Of a stretch of 32,502 nt of DNA, positions 21,799-32,502 are shown one piece after another (position 1 is the stretch's first letter; each line of letters opens with the position of its first letter). Under the pieces are notes generated by a model, which ran no database searches, was not told the DNA's origin, and saw only the letters and a list, made by a program, of their open reading frames with translations. Origin of the DNA: a virus (lineage: Duplodnaviria; Heunggongvirae; Uroviricota; Caudoviricetes); the IMG/VR virus record IMGVR_UViG_2636415833_000004. One strand, 5' to 3'. The translations under genes and the position numbers were made by a program.

Positions 21799-21830
21799 AA
21801 AAAGGGCAGATTTGAACTGCCCATTATCTT
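21797..21830 (-). terminator. rho-independent terminator between convergent ogr-like and cargo genes, strongest on minus strand
   Basis: GGGCAG (21804..21809) / CTGCCC (21817..21822) stem with 7-nt loop; A7 on plus strand gives U7 on minus strand directly after the hairpin. Confidence 0.65.
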
Positions 21831-23151
21831 ATTCAGTCCCCTTTTCCATCTGCTGTGGCTTATCTGCAACTACAGAGGGTTTAGCCTTACGATCAAGGAT
21901 ATTTTTAACATAGTTTACATTATCAATCGAAGAATCAAGAAATTTAGAAAAAGCTTTAGAGTTTAACATTTCCATCCATGGTGTTGAGTGATCATCACCT
22001 TGGACAAATCTTAATGGGGCTTCCTCTAGACGGGTTAAAGCAGAATCAAACAACCGAGTAGCGAATGTTCCATCATCAAGTTGCGATGCTTCTTTTCTGT
22101 AACCCTCATATGCTTTTGCAACGGCAGACTTAAAGGCATAATCTTCTGCTAGCTTAAATCTTTGATTAATTTGCTTTGTAGACAACCACGCAAACCAAAG
22201 CGGCGCGCCGATACTAAATATGGATAGTATTAATTGCGTTGCAATCACTATTGCACTGGTATCTGGTTGCGCTAAAACATTGGATAATGCTTTTAACCTT
22301 TCATAACCAACAAACCCACCGGCAATTAATGCCGCAGATAATCCTGCTACCCATAAACGAATGCTACAGTTTAACTTATTCGCTTTGATCTCAAAAGCTC
22401 CCGCTAACCCTTTTGAAGTCGAAGCACGAATAGCTTCCTCACATTTCGAAAGATAATTTTCTGCGATCTCTTTTTTTGCATTTAACTCTTCTTTTATCTT
22501 TTCCCCTTCGTTTAGACAAACATCCATTAAGACATTCGAATGAGATGCTTCTTCTTTTGCCTTTAAAATGTACTCTTTTATTTCCGTTAATTCTGCCTTG
22601 TATTTATTTAACTCTTCCATATATACCGGTAGATTATCAGCTGCGGCATATGCATCGTTAATCAATTTAATTTTACCTTCCAGTGTTTCAATTTCTGGAG
22701 TAGCTTGTCTTACTCTTGCATCCATACTCCGTATTTTACGTGCTAATTTCTGAGGTACGGCATCCGTATCCTGGAGTCGGTCGAAGGAAATCAAAGAATC
22801 TAAAAATGAAGATATATATGTCATGGTCATTAAAAATGAAGGAATCGCTTGTACACCATTTCCATTATAAAAGCTAGGAGCAAGGTCAGAATGTACCTTT
22901 GTTACGACTTTTCTTACATAGTCGAGTTCATCTAGTTCGAAATCAGTTAATTTAAGCATCTCTAATTTTTTTGACTTCTCGATCATTCTTTCAATATAGT
23001 CAGAAAAGTCTTTTGGCAACATTACAGGATGACCGATGCCAAATGCTTCTATAAGCCATTTATTTTTATGCCCATATGATTTTTCAGACTCATCAAAATA
23101 ATCTTTTAATTTATCTAGAGCATTTATAAATTCATTTAACTCAGCGTACAT
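21829..23151 (-). CDS. hypothetical coiled-coil / two-transmembrane-helix protein; candidate accessory (defence or exclusion) gene
   Basis: 440 aa, ATG with GAGGT 5 nt upstream; visibly AT-rich; coiled-coil N-terminal half, two hydrophobic helices (aa ~265-283 and ~299-323), ~115-aa C-terminal domain; no similarity recognised to phage core proteins. Confidence 0.75.
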   Translation of the reverse strand: MYAELNEFINALDKLKDYFDESEKSYGHKNKWLIEAFGIGHPVMLPKDFSDYIERMIEKSKKLEMLKLTDFELDELDYVRKVVTKVHSDLAPSFYNGNGVQAIPSFLMTMTYISSFLDSLISFDRLQDTDAVPQKLARKIRSMDARVRQATPEIETLEGKIKLINDAYAAADNLPVYMEELNKYKAELTEIKEYILKAKEEASHSNVLMDVCLNEGEKIKEELNAKKEIAENYLSKCEEAIRASTSKGLAGAFEIKANKLNCSIRLWVAGLSAALIAGGFVGYERLKALSNVLAQPDTSAIVIATQLILSIFSIGAPLWFAWLSTKQINQRFKLAEDYAFKSAVAKAYEGYRKEASQLDDGTFATRLFDSALTRLEEAPLRFVQGDDHSTPWMEMLNSKAFSKFLDSSIDNVNYVKNILDRKAKPSVVADKPQQMEKGTE

Positions 23152-23321: not shown

Positions 23322-25886
23322 TCATACGGTTACCACAGCCCGCCAGCGCGCCATCAGTTCCACAGTTTGTTTTTTCGCCAGCACACGCCGCCACGGCTGG
23401 AACGTGTCAATCAGGATCAGTTCGCCGGTGTTCATGTTAGCCCGGTAAACGTTGTCAATAACTGTCGCCTGTCCGCCTTGCGCCAGTGCCAGCGATTGCG
23501 CGCGGCCCAGCGGTATTTTGCGCAATTTCGCCCACTCCATGACGCGCGCGGCCAGTTCTGCCGCTGCAGCCGTGACCGGTTTTTCAGTCTCGCGAATGAC
23601 CGCCGCCGCACGTAAATAATTTTCTGCGCGCAGCTGGTCCGCGCCCGAACAGTCCGCCGTCGCTAATTGATTCGCCAGCGCTTCGAACTCGTCAGCAGCC
23701 GATTGTTTACGCTGTTTTTTGTGCGTCAGACACTCAGCGCGCAGGCGTTTGCGTTGTTCCCGTGTCAATTTGCCGATCAGAACCTGTTCGGGATCTCCCG
23801 GTGGCGGCGCACCGCTGTTTTTCTCTCCCAAAAAGTCCGCTTCACTGTTTATATTTTGTTCATCTTTTGCTGTTTTTTCATGCTCCGTACAGTTATTGAC
23901 ACGAGTCCTAGCGGGCGCAGACGCGCCCTTAAGGTCAAAAGATGAACAGCCATCACCGGGGCGCTCCGCGCTCTCCGGCGATTTTTTAACAATGCGAAAA
24001 TCCCGCAACCTGGTTATTACCGGCGGGATATTAATCAGCGGCATAAATACACCGCGGATAACCGTCAGATATTCGCCCCAGCTGTTAGGCTCCGGTTTAT
24101 CCTGATAAAACGTGCGCAACGGTAAATCCGCGCGTTTTGCCAGCGGTCCGCCCATGAGATTAACAAACCCGCCCCAATCCCCCGCGTCCGCTGCGGCGTG
24201 GATCTCGGCAAACAGCGGATTAATCTGATCAGCGGCCTGTTGATTCCCCAGCCTCCGCAGTTCGCGGTACACCGACACCGGCACACCGCCCAAAAACTGG
24301 AACTGCCTGATCCCCCACGTAGACGCCCACGCGGTCGCATGTTGCGCCGTGTCTTTCAGTGGACGTCCGCTTTCGTCGTCGCGCTCATTATCCAGCGCGT
24401 AACCGTCGATATTTTTAGAGACGTATTTGACGATATAGCCCGTAGCGGTTCCCCGCTCGGGATCAATCGGTTTGAAATCGAAACGCGGCTGTATGCCGTG
24501 TTTCGTCGTTAATTCGTCGGCGTCCTCAGCTGTTGCGTAACGCTGCATGACGTCGCGTAGCGCCTCCTGATGCTCCGGCAGAGTGAATAACAGGCCGTGC
24601 CAGTGCGGCGTTGCGTCGTGATGCGCCTCGGCTACACGTAAGCCAAAAGCGCCGATTTCCTGGCGCGCCAGCTCGGCGCGGATACGCTGCCAAATGGTAT
24701 TCAGGTATTTTTGAGACTCGCGCGGGCTAGCGCCTTGCCACTTAGGATTACGATGACCAAACGCGGTAAACGCGTGATATTTTGACGGCGCGGTAATAGT
24801 AAAAAAGCTGCCGACAAATCCCTGCTCATTGGCTACTCGCTCAAAACCGCCGATTCGCGTCATAAGCTCGGTGCGGCGTATCGCTGGATTGGACGCGCTT
24901 TTTTCTATCTGCTCCAGCAGTGAAAAACGCTCGCCTGATTCAACGTCTTCTATTTCCAGTCTTGACATGATGTCGCGATTACGCTCGCGACGCTCCCGCC
25001 ACGCATTCACGCGTTCTTTACTACAATAGGTTGACACGCTGCGGCGCACGTCGCCCAGGGAGATCCGCAAATGCTCCCGCCAGCGCACGGCGTAACGCAG
25101 TAAATTGCGGTTCCAGTAGCGCGCGTCGATCATTTTGCTGATCGCTGCCGCCAGCTCGTCGGGCAACAAGCGTTTTTTGTTTGCCCTTGCCGCCGTGACG
25201 TGAAAAACGTTAGCCAACGTTTTCAATTCAGCGTAAAACCGCCGGCCAGTTTCGATTTCGTCCAGGTGTTCACAATCTGCGGCAATTTCTGCCAGTGTGG
25301 CGTTTGCGTAAATTGCGACGTCCTGCGCCAGTAATTCAACATCCTCCGGCGAATAATCAGGCAGTGTGTCGAAACGACGGATCAGATCGGTGAGTTGTTC
25401 AAAATTGTGATAGAGCGGCTCAAGGCCAACAAACGGCGTTTCATAAACCCGCCCAGCATTGCGGGGCGGGCTTATGGAATACTGCTGCATAACGGCGGAA
25501 ATGTGGATTAATTCGCGGCTGGCGATATCTCGCAGCGCCAGCGCCGCGACGTGTCGCCCCTGCTTTTCGTGAGAACGTTCAACGCGCGCCATCATGCGGC
25601 GGCGGATGAATGTCGGATATGGCTGAAAAGTGGATTTTACACGCTGCCAGAATTCGTATTCTGCGGCGAACTCCTGCGGATCATGTTTCGGCGTCCGGTC
25701 AACGCTAATTGCTGCGCGCGGGGCGTTCCACGCGTATGGATACAGTGTAGTGTCTGCGCCGCTCCCCAGGAACGGGGGCGGCGGTGTTGGGGCGTAGCGT
25801 CCGCGCGTCAATTGATAGACGCCAGCCACAGAGCAGCGAATGGATCGATTTCGTTGTAATAGGCGGTCATAAATCCGCCTCTTCAA
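23322..25886 (-). CDS. A: replication initiation protein, P2 gpA-like (rolling-circle HUH endonuclease); true start uncertain
   Basis: YAWNAPR near N-terminus, TPHWHGLLF (HUH) and YIVKYVSKNIDGYALD (active-site Tyr) match remembered P2 A motifs; track start 25886 is TTG, an internal GTG near 25829 fits the P2 alignment. Confidence 0.85.
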   Translation of the reverse strand: MKRRIYDRLLQRNRSIRCSVAGVYQLTRGRYAPTPPPPFLGSGADTTLYPYAWNAPRAAISVDRTPKHDPQEFAAEYEFWQRVKSTFQPYPTFIRRRMMARVERSHEKQGRHVAALALRDIASRELIHISAVMQQYSISPPRNAGRVYETPFVGLEPLYHNFEQLTDLIRRFDTLPDYSPEDVELLAQDVAIYANATLAEIAADCEHLDEIETGRRFYAELKTLANVFHVTAARANKKRLLPDELAAAISKMIDARYWNRNLLRYAVRWREHLRISLGDVRRSVSTYCSKERVNAWRERRERNRDIMSRLEIEDVESGERFSLLEQIEKSASNPAIRRTELMTRIGGFERVANEQGFVGSFFTITAPSKYHAFTAFGHRNPKWQGASPRESQKYLNTIWQRIRAELARQEIGAFGLRVAEAHHDATPHWHGLLFTLPEHQEALRDVMQRYATAEDADELTTKHGIQPRFDFKPIDPERGTATGYIVKYVSKNIDGYALDNERDDESGRPLKDTAQHATAWASTWGIRQFQFLGGVPVSVYRELRRLGNQQAADQINPLFAEIHAAADAGDWGGFVNLMGGPLAKRADLPLRTFYQDKPEPNSWGEYLTVIRGVFMPLINIPPVITRLRDFRIVKKSPESAERPGDGCSSFDLKGASAPARTRVNNCTEHEKTAKDEQNINSEADFLGEKNSGAPPPGDPEQVLIGKLTREQRKRLRAECLTHKKQRKQSAADEFEALANQLATADCSGADQLRAENYLRAAAVIRETEKPVTAAAAELAARVMEWAKLRKIPLGRAQSLALAQGGQATVIDNVYRANMNTGELILIDTFQPWRRVLAKKQTVELMARWRAVVTV

Positions 25887-29254: not shown

Positions 29255-29674
29255 TCAATTAAACGCTGTCGTTTTTGTCAGGCTGGCTTCGGCAGTCATA
29301 AAAGCTCTGGCATACCATGCAACCATATTGATTTGTCTTAGTTCGCGACGATTTGGATCGACACGCGGCACTAATGGCAGATAGCCGCGCTCAGCATCGC
29401 TTTGAACCTTACGCAAAGACTGTCCGAAGAATTCGGAAAATTCCTGCACTGTTAAAACCGGTTTAATGCCACTACTAAGGATATGTTTCAGTGCGCGGTC
29501 AATTGCCATTAGTTCACGTTCAGAACGACTATCAGGGGATCGCCGAGCGCGGCGCTGATGATTGCTTTGAGTCTGTTCGGGTAAAAACGCGCCTTGTGCC
29601 AGTTCAACGACCGGGTAGTAACCAGGATCAGCCTCCTGATGTGCGGGTAAAGCTCTGTTTTGCTCTGGTGTCAT
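29255..29674 (-). CDS. Cox/Apl-like HTH early regulator (putative excisionase/switch protein)
   Basis: First gene of early operon, divergent from C; ATG 29674 with AGGA upstream; C-terminal LTVQEFSEFFGQSLRKVQSDAERGYLPLV resembles P2 Cox (IPYQEFAKLIGKSTGAVRRMIDKGKLPVI); an internal ATG at 29509 would give a Cox-sized 84-aa product. Confidence 0.55.
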   Translation of the reverse strand: MTPEQNRALPAHQEADPGYYPVVELAQGAFLPEQTQSNHQRRARRSPDSRSERELMAIDRALKHILSSGIKPVLTVQEFSEFFGQSLRKVQSDAERGYLPLVPRVDPNRRELRQINMVAWYARAFMTAEASLTKTTAFN

Positions 29675-29771
29675 TTGATATCCTGTCTGTTTAGATTGGT
29701 TTCGCTTGTCTTCAAGTAGTCTAATTAGACTGCATGAAGGGAAATTTAATGTCTAATTGGACTACTGTCAA
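29675..29771. promoter_or_regulatory. immunity switch region: candidate early promoter with operator repeats
   Basis: Minus strand TTGACA (29771..29766), 17-bp spacer, TAAATT (29748..29743); 13-bp direct repeats GTCTAATTAGACT (29719..29731) and GTCTAATTGGACT (29751..29763), the first within a perfect 14-bp palindrome AGTCTAATTAGACT (29718..29731). Confidence 0.55.
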
Positions 29772-30032
29772 ATGAAACTTGGTGAAAAATTAAAAGCGAT
29801 TAGAGCAGCCGAAGGTCTTAGTCAGAATGAGTTTTGCGAATTTATTGACTTATCTATAAATACGCTTAGGAAATATGAAACGGGGGGGTATGAACCTGGT
29901 GGTAGTGCTTTGGTTAAAATCGCCCAACACCCGCGCTTTCAAAAATACACGCTATGGCTGATGTCTGACATCACCGCACCAGAAGCAGGTCAGATAGCAC
30001 CAGTTACCAAAGAAGAGAAAAAGACCGGTTAA
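29757..30032 (+). CDS. C: P2 C-type immunity repressor (HTH); likely true start ATG at 29772
   Basis: C-terminal HPRFQKYTLWLMSDITAPEAGQIAPV matches remembered P2 C (TPQFTKYTLWFMTNQIAPESGQIAPA); track start 29757 is TTG, ATG at 29772. Confidence 0.75.
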   Translation: MDYCQMKLGEKLKAIRAAEGLSQNEFCEFIDLSINTLRKYETGGYEPGGSALVKIAQHPRFQKYTLWLMSDITAPEAGQIAPVTKEEKKTG

Positions 30033-30074
30033 TCACCGCCCGCACTGCGGGCGAATAATACATAAGGAAAATGT

Positions 30075-30524
30075 ATGTCAAAAGATAATGATACATTTAT
30101 ACCCCCAATACGCCCACCTCGTAATTCCCGCTATGAAGAACCATCACCAGAACTTATGAAAAGGCTACAACAAGTTACCCCTGAATTATTCGCTGAATTT
30201 TTGATGTCAAAAAACGCCGCTCAGTTCTGCATATCATGTGGATTTACTAAATTAACAATGTCCGAAAACGGAGTTTATAACGGTGCAAAGACTCCCGAAA
30301 ACTATGACTCTTTATCGCAAATCGATCAGGAGAAATTCGCAGCTGATAATACTCTCTGGTATGTAACGCCCGTGTTTGTGAATACTCATACAAAAATAAG
30401 ATTAGCCGATGTCGAATATAAAATTAATTGCCCAAACTGCGGGCATATCAGCATTTATCGCGCCCGCCCGGTCGTCGCATGGATAGAAGAGAATCGCAAG
30501 GAATGCAAAAATGAGTCAGACTAA
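30075..30524 (+). CDS. hypothetical zinc-ribbon protein (two CxxC pairs)
   Basis: 149 aa, ATG with AAGGAAA SD; Cys52/Cys55 (CISC) and Cys119/Cys122 (CPNC); inserted between the two C-type repressor genes. Confidence 0.55.
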   Translation: MSKDNDTFIPPIRPPRNSRYEEPSPELMKRLQQVTPELFAEFLMSKNAAQFCISCGFTKLTMSENGVYNGAKTPENYDSLSQIDQEKFAADNTLWYVTPVFVNTHTKIRLADVEYKINCPNCGHISIYRARPVVAWIEENRKECKNESD

Positions 30525-30945
30525 GGATAATGTTCATCATATAAGAGAACGTCAGGTACCCATAAATAATGAGTCCACAAACAGTAGTGACGACGGAGGC
30601 AACGGCATGAACAGCCTAATAAAACGCGTTGAAAAACTGGAAGACAATACCGGTGTAATTGTTAAAGAACTTACCCATCTCAACGCGCGCGCTGATGACT
30701 TCGCCTCAAAGGGCGATCTGCGTGAACTCAAGGCGCAGATAACTGGGGATATGAAAGAACTCCGTGCGCAGATGACCGGAGATATGCGCGAGCTTAAGGC
30801 ACAGATTAGCGGCGAACTCAAAGAGTCCAGGTCCGCAACCAGGGAAGATCTTGCAAAGGGATTACATAAGCAAATGATATGGCTATGCTCTGCCCTTTTC
30901 GCTACAGCAGGAGTCATAATCGCTTTGGTAAAAGATCTGTTCTAA
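30511..30945 (+). CDS. hypothetical coiled-coil protein with 11-residue repeats and C-terminal transmembrane anchor
   Basis: 144 aa; repeats GDLRELKAQIT / GDMKELRAQMT / GDMRELKAQIS; hydrophobic C-terminal helix MIWLCSALFATAGVIIALV; overlaps upstream gene by 14 nt. Confidence 0.55.
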   Translation: MSQTKDNVHHIRERQVPINNESTNSSDDGGNGMNSLIKRVEKLEDNTGVIVKELTHLNARADDFASKGDLRELKAQITGDMKELRAQMTGDMRELKAQISGELKESRSATREDLAKGLHKQMIWLCSALFATAGVIIALVKDLF

Positions 30946-31059
30946 TTGTGCGATATATTACTTTTTAATAAATTACACAAAAAATATACAACATATATTT
31001 TATATTGATTGATAATTACCATTTATTACATACATGAATTACTGATAAGCAGTTTTGGC

Positions 31060-31090
31060 TAAAATTTGTTCGTGTGCGAACAATACATTT
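31060..31090. promoter_or_regulatory. operator-like inverted repeat upstream of second C-type repressor
   Basis: TTGTTCG-tgtg-CGAACAA inverted repeat at about 31066..31083 in an AT-rich intergenic region; coordinates approximate to +/-2. Confidence 0.3.
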
Positions 31091-31126
31091 GCGCCCTGAA
31101 TGCCAATAATAGCAATCGAGGTGTAT

Positions 31127-31405
31127 ATGTCCTTGCGTAACCGCTTATTCTTGATAATTAATGCTGAAAATCTCACTATCTGCGAATTCGCGATATTTTG
31201 TGATATTTCGAAGAAGACACTGTATCAATTCAGGCAGCAAATAATAATGACGCTGCCTGATATTGATTTATTGAAGATCACCCGAAACCCCAGATTCAAT
31301 AAATATACGTTATGGATGATGACAAATAAGACCGCAGCATCATCCGGGCAAATCGATCCGGCGCTTTTCCCTCTTCGCTCGCCAAAACAATCTATTAACC
31401 AATAA
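31127..31405 (+). CDS. second P2 C-type repressor paralog, immediately upstream of int
   Basis: ATG 31127 with GAGGTG SD (track start 31100 is an upstream ATG); NPRFNKYTLWMMTNKTAASSGQIDPA aligns with the first C-like protein and P2 C. Confidence 0.6.
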   Translation: MSLRNRLFLIINAENLTICEFAIFCDISKKTLYQFRQQIIMTLPDIDLLKITRNPRFNKYTLWMMTNKTAASSGQIDPALFPLRSPKQSINQ

Positions 31406-31509
31406 CCCGAACTGGCAACAAATTGAACAGTTATATATTGCTGCCCGTGTTACCCAGTTCAGTTCGTCAGCAAATGACGACCAGCATTCACAGCCGGAGA
31501 AAATGACAA

Positions 31510-32502
31510 ATGACCATTACTAAAAAGGACAACGGAAAATACATGGTTGATGTTCGGCCTGCGGGGCGTTCCGGGAAGCGCGTCAGGCGTTCATTCTCCA
31601 CTAAATCAGAGGCTGTCACCTTTGAACGCTGGATAATAGCCAGTGCTAATAATAAAGAATGGCTGGAAAAACCAGCTGATCGGCGTCGGTTATCTGAACT
31701 GATCGAATTGTGGTGGAAGAACCACGGGCAAACGCTCACCGACTGCAAAAACCGGTTATGGATTTTGAATGCCTCATGCGCGCGCTTAAATAATCCACGT
31801 ATAACCCAACTCACCGCCCAGCTTTTTGCAGAGTACCGAACAAAACGGCGGGCAGAAGGGATCGCGCCAAAAACGTTAAATAATGAACAACGATACTTGA
31901 AGTCAGTGTTCAGTAAATTGAAAGAACTGGATCTATTCTGGGATAACAACCCAATGACTGGACTCGCAGAACTGAAACTGACCGAATCAGAACAGGGATA
32001 TTTTACTGACGAACAGATTAGAACGGTTCTGACAGAGTTAACAGGCGACAACAAGCTGATAGCCAAACTTTGTCTGTCCACCGGTGCACGATGGAGTGAA
32101 GGTGCAAAATTAACCAGGCAGAGACTGGTTAACGGCATGGTGACATTTACAAAAACCAAAAATGGCAAATCACGTTCAGTTCCTATCGGTAAGGAACTGG
32201 AAATGGAGTTAATGCAGAGGATTGAAGTACACGACAAACAACTGATTTTCCCGGATGCGAGCTATCAGACTGCACGAAAAGTTATTAAAGGCGCTGTTCC
32301 TGATCTACCTGACGGACAGGCAACTCACGCTTTCAGGCACACTTTCGCCTCTCATTTCATGGCAAACGGAGGAAACATATTGGTACTTCAACGAGTCCTG
32401 GGCCATCACAAAATCCAACAAACGATGACGTATGCCCACTTTGCCCCTGATCATTTGTTTGATGCGGTGACATTAAACCCATTAGCTACGATGAAAATAT
32501 AA
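31510..32502 (+). CDS. int: tyrosine integrase, P2 Int-like
   Basis: 330 aa; C-terminal catalytic region HAFRHTFASHF ... LGHHKIQQTMTYAHF (His-x-x-Arg and Tyr); directly downstream of C-type repressor as in P2. Confidence 0.85.
   Translation: MTITKKDNGKYMVDVRPAGRSGKRVRRSFSTKSEAVTFERWIIASANNKEWLEKPADRRRLSELIELWWKNHGQTLTDCKNRLWILNASCARLNNPRITQLTAQLFAEYRTKRRAEGIAPKTLNNEQRYLKSVFSKLKELDLFWDNNPMTGLAELKLTESEQGYFTDEQIRTVLTELTGDNKLIAKLCLSTGARWSEGAKLTRQRLVNGMVTFTKTKNGKSRSVPIGKELEMELMQRIEVHDKQLIFPDASYQTARKVIKGAVPDLPDGQATHAFRHTFASHFMANGGNILVLQRVLGHHKIQQTMTYAHFAPDHLFDAVTLNPLATMKI

Follow-up and report, generated by a model that had tools for sequence, protein, structure and literature searches.

A second C-family gene beside the integrase of a P2-like prophage as a variant of the P2 C-int switch

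In bacteriophage P2, the switch relies on one repressor gene, C, which faces cox, and C and the integrase gene int are transcribed from the promoter Pc. The locus described here belongs to a tailed virus of the class Caudoviricetes (IMG/VR record IMGVR_UViG_2636415833_000004), and the window, the whole stretch of DNA that was analysed, comprises 32,502 nt; in the contig searches it was equated with IMG/VR contig UViG_3300028969_000137. It contains a P2-like prophage in which two genes of the C family, designated C1 and C2, precede int. Judged by their sequences, C1 carries immunity and C2 is a selectively maintained and diverged C paralogue, which is inherited with int and not with the immunity cassette or the cargo genes located between C1 and C2. 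An earlier sequence-only reading of this DNA had regarded the pair either as a recombination scar between two immunity types or as evidence of a second repressor of separate specificity, controlling int or the cargo. The preferred explanation, with C1 responsible for immunity and C2 a functional paralogue regulating the C2-int unit, comes close to an even chance as a whole without reaching it. The locus would represent a variant of the P2 switch, in which int is no longer tied to the immunity gene and has a specialised C paralogue as its partner.

Both predicted open reading frames (ORFs) were found where they had been placed, at 29772-30032 (C1) and 31127-31405 (C2), although the TTG at 29757, initially taken for the start of the first ORF, is a poorer choice than the ATG at 29772. 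The two products align as claimed, with 32 identities in 78 positions (41%; BLASTP, E=1e-17), and are paralogues. The suggested alignment with C repressors of P2-like phages placed both in the P2 C family, with significant similarity across the entire core of ~80 residues; both match PHROG 147, the family of P2 C-type regulators (C1, E=2.1e-28; C2, E=1.5e-15). C1 and P2 C share 67.9% identity (tblastn, E=4e-31), and C1 scores 38.3 bits with Pfam HTH_3 (PF01381), the cut-off being 23. C2 shares 37.5% identity with P2 C (E=4e-8) and at most about 44% with any deposited phage C, and it matches the P2 C structures 2l49 and 2xcj by sequence (phmmer, E=1.5e-8). The AlphaFold model of C2 contains helices at residues 3-13, 18-25, 29-36, 45-52 and 58-65, with a predicted local distance difference test score (pLDDT) of 86-94 over residues 1-60, and the top PDB match of this model in Foldseek was P2 C (2xcj_A, TM-score 0.66/0.71). 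C2 is predicted to keep the five-helix fold of P2 C, of the Cro/cI helix-turn-helix (HTH) type; C1 presumably has the same fold, as suggested by its 68% identity to P2 C. A recent duplication at the DNA level was considered and rejected, since no direct repeat of at least 20 nt links C1 and C2, and the split between the two genes is regarded as ancient for the same reason.

Homologues of C2 were sought in a protein collection of 5.8 billion clusters, with the single sequence and with a profile, by HMMER over 1.84 billion representatives, in genome, viral and metagenome contigs, and by blastn against E. coli genomes. The collection contained five C2-type proteins, and the exhaustive HMMER scan returned two C2-type clusters, ranked ahead of the canonical C proteins. 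In total, five distinct lineages with six sequence variants were found (both the window and the E. coli alleles being counted), and the other matches were canonical C proteins. The C2-type proteins make up a small subfamily of enterobacterial prophages, a monophyletic long branch, being 49-100% identical to each other and no more than 43% identical to any canonical C. Besides the window and its E. coli relatives, C2-type genes occur in the following arrangements.

L002, Enterobacter sp. MF024: cox (minus strand), C (98 aa), an unrelated 293-aa cargo ORF, a C2-like gene (69% identity) and int (62%).
L070, Logan contig: cox (minus strand), C, an intrinsic terminator, a C2-like gene and int, without cargo.
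L071, Logan contig: a C2-like gene and int; the contig begins 240 nt before C2.
L072, Logan contig of 1.5 kb: three canonical C genes in tandem, then a C2-like gene; the contig ends before int, and, as a short metagenome contig that may be affected by assembly, it is to be read with caution.

A canonical C gene lies upstream of the C2-type gene wherever the contig covers that side, which is the case for four contexts, with the exception of L071. In the window and E. coli lineage, as well as in L002, L070 and L071, the C2-type gene is located 90-130 nt upstream of int. The view that the second C gene is tied to int and possesses conserved upstream DNA of its own was borne out, the linkage being present in all lineages whose contig reaches int. 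The integrases of the C2-type loci are closest to one another, with 60-67% identity, compared with 53% at most for all other loci. Seven complete E. coli genomes have the C2 ORF intact (e.g. L001 7950-8515, LZSFT34, NZ_CP132728, with the prophage at about 569.7-578.9 kb), and the NCBI Prokaryotic Genome Annotation Pipeline (PGAP) annotates it in none of them. The Enterobacter orthologue is the only C2-type protein with a protein record, and it is annotated by NCBI as a transcriptional regulator.

The C2 ORF is intact in all six variants and five lineages and is under purifying selection. The ratio of non-synonymous to synonymous substitution rates (dN/dS, Nei-Gojobori) across the six variants is 0.12-0.46 for the whole gene, with synonymous sites near saturation. 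For the C-terminal third the ratio is 0.07-0.53, and for the N-terminal half it is 0.2-0.5 where computable, most pairs being saturated there (proportion of synonymous differences, pS, 0.47-0.99; of non-synonymous differences, pN, 0.13-0.38); in the pairs that give no ratio for this half, pS is saturated and pN amounts to 0.26-0.38. The features of the locus in the window are arranged as follows.

29255..29674, minus strand: Cox-like gene (139 aa), heading the leftward early operon; assigned to PHROG 575, 'Cox-like excisionase and repressor', E=7.4e-9.
29719..29763, no strand: putative operator pair of C1, made up of 13-nt direct repeats on either side of the -10 in the Pe-like promoter.
29743..29771, minus strand: Pe-like early promoter TTGACA-17-TAAATT, 10/12 in the consensus scan, abutting the C1 start codon.
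29772..30032, plus strand: C1, canonical P2 C-type immunity repressor (86 aa), assigned by similarity to P2 C and Pfam HTH_3 (1.4e-9).
30037..30053, plus strand: 7-bp GC hairpin CGCCCGC-ACT-GCGGGCG, just 3' of the C1 stop codon.
30075..30945, plus strand: two overlapping cargo ORFs of 149 aa (30075-30524) and 144 aa (30511-30945), between C1 and C2.
30946-31126: AT-rich intergenic gap of 181 bp between the cargo and C2.
31057..31126, plus strand: conserved non-coding region 5' of C2, the presumed promoter/operator of the C2-int unit, including GAGGTG at 31118-31123.
31066..31083, no strand: inverted repeat TTGTTCG-N4-CGAACAA, a perfect match with 7-nt arms and a candidate operator.
31127..31405, plus strand: C2, diverged P2 C-family paralogue (92 aa), assigned by homology, fold and selection.
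31389..31418, minus strand: element at the junction of the C2 stop codon and int, promoter-like in the consensus scan, TTGCCA-18-TAGATT (TAAATT in relatives).
31510..32502, plus strand: tyrosine integrase (330 aa) at the prophage end; Pfam Int_N 7.5e-32, Phage_integrase 3.4e-21.

The description of C1 as the switch repressor, divergent from a Cox-like gene and facing direct-repeat operators, proved accurate: the repeats, GTCTAATTAGACT at 29719-29731 and GTCTAATTGGACT at 29751-29763, are 32 bp apart with no further copy in the window, and the Pe-like promoter is in place. This layout of operator and promoter is the P2 arrangement (PMC2995052; PMC1904268). An equivalent of the promoter, TTGACA-18-TAATAT, occupies the corresponding place in L070 and L002. 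The Cox-like product also has a weak match to Pfam Phage_Cox (E=0.028) and is 98% identical to its E. coli relatives. C1 keeps the residues Arg13, Tyr37 and Glu38 of P2 C numbering (AIR...KYETG, read from the sequence), and it is predicted to confer superinfection immunity and to repress Pe.

The same prophage is present in seven complete E. coli genomes, adjoining mipA/yeaG. In comparison with these prophages, the window shows 98% identity for cox, 97% for C2 and 99% for int, the cargo also falling within 97-99%, but just 62% for C1. Alignment of the DNA (window 29705-29950 against L001 6705-6955 and L003) revealed a swapped segment extending from about 29705 to the codons for YTLWLM at about 29950, in which both operator repeats and the HTH half of C1 (helices 1-4) have been replaced. 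The E. coli allele of C1 has its own repeats, the flanks of the segment are essentially identical, and the right-hand crossover falls inside the conserved YTLWLM codons. The HTH half of C1 co-varies with its operators between immunity types and C2 does not follow the immunity type, since the exchange leaves C2 97% identical.

It might be supposed that C2 is an unexpressed, non-functional remnant of recombination between two immunity regions. Such recombination does take place at this locus, with a crossover within the YTLWLM codons of C1, and C2 has neither a PGAP annotation in the seven E. coli genomes nor a Pfam match. However, none of the six variants from five lineages has a broken ORF, both halves of the gene give dN/dS values far below 1, the Shine-Dalgarno sequence is conserved together with the upstream DNA, the fold is predicted with confidence, and NCBI annotated the Enterobacter copy. 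The same order of a canonical C followed by C2 and int also recurs without cargo, with other cargo or behind three canonical C genes, which speaks against a scar. On the strength of the selection data, a dead scar is very improbable and is excluded for practical purposes. The sequence-only reading was right about recombination as a process, the crossover lying in the conserved 3' half of C; the label of a leftover scar does not suit C2.

For a comparison of residues, 71 distinct C-like sequences from the fetched loci were aligned to P2 C. The canonical set (n=62) takes in both copies of every tandem pair. The positions that distinguish the C2-type proteins, in P2 C numbering, are listed below.

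Arg13: Arg in 62/62 canonical proteins; Ile or Met in C2-type proteins.
Arg20: Gln, Lys or Arg in canonical proteins; Ile or Gly in C2-type proteins.
Tyr37: Tyr in 59 of the 62 canonical proteins; Phe or Leu in C2-type proteins.
Glu38: Glu in 62/62 canonical proteins; Arg, Met, Lys or Tyr in C2-type proteins.

In C2 of the window, the positions of Arg13, Tyr37 and Glu38 are occupied by Ile11, Phe35 and Arg36, and all eight C2-type sequences (8/8) lack both Arg13 and Glu38. At the same time, Glu16, Lys60, Tyr61, Met66, Gly75, Gln76, Ile77 and Pro79 are retained in C2-type proteins. These residues (Glu16, Lys60, Tyr61, Met66 and those of Gly75-Pro79) belong to a patch of invariant surface that has been proposed to make contact with RNA polymerase or some other protein (PMC2995052). 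In C2-type proteins, position 78 is Asp, not Ala or Ser, and Pro72 is absent. Of 7 C2-type proteins, 5 keep Thr67, the residue changed by the sos mutation, with which binding of P4 E is lost (PMC2995052), L070 and L071 having Leu and Ile; Ile is the sos substitution itself. The hydrophobic positions of the dimer interface are preserved, and 26 positions are invariant within the C2 subfamily, mostly among residues 43-82. In helix 3, the DNA-facing positions differ among orthologues, though basic or polar residues remain. The net charge of the HTH half was tried as a proxy for loss of DNA binding and dropped as non-discriminating (a hand count gave about +2 for C2 and about 0 for C1).

Stacked C genes were also observed elsewhere. 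Other P2-like loci contain two to four tandem C-family genes upstream of int, all with Arg13 and Glu38, as in the following cases.

L005, 2024-2816; L024, 5696-6294; L034, 5986-6582; L037, 5657-6255: tandem C genes.
L050, 5992-6618; L061/L063, 5830-6431; L066, 5523-6150; L072, 46-1395: further tandem C genes.

In L005, the duplicated C includes 34 nt of upstream DNA, and in L072 the three canonical copies have common 3' repeats of 132 nt. The pair in L034, L037, L050, L061/L063 and L066 is an old one: across these loci the first copies are orthologues of one another, and so are the second copies, with 36-49% identity between the copies within a locus and 53-94% for each copy across loci. By these sequence comparisons, the L034-type pair has been inherited stably over a long time. 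About 15% of the IMG/VR loci fetched contain two C genes. By comparison, the deposited phage records matched by C2 (126), C1 (157) and the tandem-type C (128) have exactly one C-like place each. No description of tandem canonical C genes was found in the literature searched; among the passages found in a survey from 2011 on the regulatory regions of P2-like phages (31 phages, with 13 P2-type C proteins), none mentions duplicated C genes (PMC3448106). In addition, four single polypeptides of 163-195 aa (P0006, P0007, P0009 and P0065) have two complete C-type domains in series; these putative fused double-C proteins hint that paired C domains can work together.

The occurrence of tandem canonical C genes with differing recognition helices, together with the differences between C1 and C2 in helix 3, could be taken to mean that C2 is a second true immunity repressor of other specificity, captured from a heteroimmune P2-like phage, to which it would make the lysogen immune as well. 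But all four C2-type contexts with an upstream side show the gene in a secondary position, none of them facing cox, and no second direct-repeat operator pair is present at C2. Neither the protein nor the contig searches found an element with a C2-type protein as the primary, cox-facing repressor. Because of this result and the loss of the residues that are invariant in the family (62/62 canonical proteins keep both Arg13 and Glu38), a captured heteroimmune repressor of a different immunity type is considered improbable.

Another explanation is that C2 acts through protein contacts. It could titrate a partner of C (the antirepressor of a satellite, such as P4 epsilon) or RNA polymerase; it could also enter into mixed dimers with the C protein of a P2-like phage, whether incoming or already resident. 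Arg13, Arg20 and Glu38 have been lost in every C2-type protein, and the surface patch and dimer surface have been kept; conservation within C2 is highest in the C-terminal half; the residues of helix 3 drift when the upstream DNA does not; and C2 remains unchanged across the swap of the C1 immunity cassette. On the other hand, the N-terminal half is still under purifying selection with a basic and polar helix 3, position 67 is Leu or Ile in L070 and L071, Ile being the sos substitution, and the strict linkage to int would be left without explanation. Action through protein contacts is possible but doubtful. Its narrower form, in which C2 is a repressor mimic without operator binding that absorbs P4 epsilon-type antirepressors or poisons the repressors of rival P2-like phages via mixed dimers, seems unlikely.

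The reading that is tentatively preferred makes C2 a local HTH regulator of the C2-int unit. The comparison of the two putative operators, suggested with the original observation, contrasts a direct-repeat pair at C1 with an inverted repeat at C2. No direct-repeat operator pair was found upstream of C2, which lies 1.1 kb downstream of C1, behind the cargo. The inverted repeat at 31066-31083 is present, as reported, and perfect, but it is short and of borderline significance: the 181-bp intergenic region contains three perfect 7-nt inverted repeats against 0.39 expected (p ~0.04). It occurs once in the window. In distant relatives, its right arm alone is conserved, with the adjoining CGAACAATACATTT box, and this box is not present elsewhere beyond chance. 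A weaker repeat, GTTC-N6-GAAC, was seen in L070 and L072 but not in L002.

The Shine-Dalgarno sequence before the ATG at 31127 reads GAGGTG, as it does in L002 and L072; every C2-type locus has a purine-rich site of this kind, which in L070 and L071 takes a degenerate form. The 70 nt located 5' of C2 in the window are 64-69% identical to those of L002, L070 and L072 and 48% identical to those of L071; in the adjoining 5' half of C2, just 2-25% of the synonymous sites are unchanged, far below the level of the upstream 70 nt. In the window, as in L002 and L072, a leftward promoter-like site (31106-31133, minus strand) has its -35 over the start codon of C2. The element at the C2-int junction, TTGCCA-18-TA(A/G)ATT, is present in all C2-type loci but L071 and in none of 69 other loci (0/69); in L070 it is conserved and located after the C2 stop codon. 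These two leftward sites flanking C2 may be promoters or protein-binding sites, and the junction element, if active, would give antisense transcription through C2. Two further candidates were discarded. A terminator or attenuator in the 3' end of C2, a CCGGG...CCCGG hairpin, is weak (-6.3 kcal/mol, z=0.71), shows no covariation and is not better than shuffled sequences, and an enrichment of GAAC/GTTC in the C2-int spacer, noticed by eye, is not conserved in L002.

In L070, a hairpin stem of the 30037-30053 type followed by a T-run scores as an intrinsic terminator (606-622) after C1. In the window, the cargo follows this hairpin in place of the T-run, which makes it plausible that transcription from Pc continues into the cargo.

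The preferred mechanism can be put as follows. C1 would repress the Cox-like operon at the pair of direct repeats that overlies its Pe-like promoter. C2 would descend from an old duplication at the C-int junction and would not be a determinant of immunity; together with int, it would form a conserved two-gene module with its own upstream DNA and ribosome-binding site, separated from C1 and Pc by the terminator-type hairpin after C1 and by the cargo insertion site. As a dimeric HTH protein with altered DNA contacts, C2 would bind upstream of its own gene, with 31066-31083 as the candidate site, and would thereby set the transcription of the C2-int unit, replacing the direct coupling of int to Pc seen in P2. 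This local-regulator reading is favoured because of the fold, the conserved upstream DNA, the terminator and cargo between int and Pc, and the selection on the HTH half. Control of int by C2 is plausible, and we infer that C2 binds DNA, which site it binds and in which direction it regulates; the mechanism as such is offered as a tentative possibility, somewhat below an even chance.

Several observations weigh against this mechanism. C2 has no Pfam HTH match even at E<=1. Arg13 and Glu38, absent from C2, are strictly conserved residues that position DNA-backbone contacts, and the substitutions Y37A and E38A abolish the activity of P2 C in vivo and in vitro (PMC2995052). With Arg13 and Glu38 gone and Y37A and E38A inactive in P2 C, canonical DNA binding by C2 may have been lost. 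The drift in helix 3, set against upstream DNA that is mostly conserved, is unexpected for a sequence-specific autoregulator, unless the C2 operator is located in the variable stretch from -70 to -50, which would fit such drift. The candidate inverted repeat is short, borderline and conserved in one half. Furthermore, the consensus scan gave no good rightward sigma-70 promoter in the conserved block 5' of C2; the lone rightward candidate between the cargo and C2, at 30972-30999 (9/12), lies in the poorly conserved AT-rich part, and a conserved hexamer of the TAATAT type could just as well serve as the -10 for leftward transcription.

The cargo of the window, an operon of two genes, encodes a 149-aa protein with two CxxC motifs (PHROG 4293) and a 144-aa protein with a coiled coil and a C-terminal hydrophobic helix. 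L070 has no cargo, and Enterobacter L002 carries instead the unrelated 293-aa ORF, which is assigned to PHROG 3989 and has a BRCT-like C-terminus and a weak PADLOC match to PDC-S48. For C2 and the cargo proteins of the window, PADLOC gave no convincing match. Control of the cargo by C2, one of the roles suggested earlier, is unlikely, as relatives with a C2 gene have other cargo or none. The gap between C1 and C2 looks like a cargo insertion site, possibly holding defence or exclusion genes. According to passages of two published accounts (PMC9122126; PMC13586616), the integrase-to-primase interval of P2-like prophages is a minor hotspot with 8% of P2 defence systems, and the C1-C2 cargo lies in this interval. 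The passages found in a 2026 survey of about 8,000 P2-like prophages name no C paralogue bounding an insertion site (PMC13586616).

In L016 (6246-6941), L058 (6078-6773) and L024 (6294-7619), the distance from the last C gene to int is 0.7-1.3 kb, the usual distance being 70-130 nt. Insertions at the C-int junction seem to recur in P2-like loci.

As for the rest of the window, the P2-like prophage includes genes for GpA (23322-25886), a Dam methylase and a 3'-5' exonuclease, a Fil-like gene and an Ogr/Delta-like gene. A megablast search of the region against 50,697 phage records gave no match, and the element is known only as a prophage. A 440-aa ORF without a Pfam match (21829-23151, minus strand) is located between gpA and the Ogr/Delta-like gene, which adjoins the packaging genes. 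By passages of the same two accounts, this is the main accessory and defence hotspot of P2-like phages, between GpA and portal (PMC9122126; PMC13586616).

If C2 regulates int, the locus shows how the control of integration can be uncoupled from immunity. If it works through protein contacts instead, C2 would represent a new type of counter-measure in conflicts between phages and satellites or between phages, and a repressor mimic would mean a prophage defence against hijacking and competition built from the prophage's own immunity gene. C2 has dropped residues held to be indispensable in the family, and the gap between the C genes is used as an insertion site for cargo. Since C2 is unannotated in all seven complete E. 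coli genomes carrying it, features of this kind are easily missed. The phenomenon may extend beyond this lineage, given that multi-C arrays, missing from every deposited phage genome checked, turned up in about 15% of the loci retrieved from IMG/VR. In a wider reading, stacking and fusing of C genes would be a general, undescribed route by which P2-like prophages diversify their switch. The novelty consists in a C2-type second C beside int as a variant of the known P2 C-int switch, and the interest would be higher if action by protein contacts were true.

Among known systems, SinR and SinI of Bacillus subtilis consist of an HTH repressor and a small protein related to it, which affects the repressor through protein-protein contact. 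The pair can serve as a model for C2 as a decoy or modulator, but SinI has no HTH domain and C2 keeps the full predicted fold. The loci with tandem canonical C genes resemble C1/C2 in having more than one C-family gene upstream of int and, for the L034-type lineage, in the stable inheritance of the pair; their copies, however, are directly adjacent, without cargo, and both keep Arg13 and Glu38. C1 shares with P2 C and its heteroimmune relatives (Wphi, P2 Hy dis) the family, the size, the position facing cox, the direct-repeat operators over Pe and the invariant residues. C2 shares with P2 C the family by sequence, the C-terminal half PRFxKYTLWxM...GQIxPA, the predicted fold and the site directly upstream of int, and it differs in being a second copy that does not face cox, has no direct-repeat pair and is unaffected by exchange of the immunity cassette.

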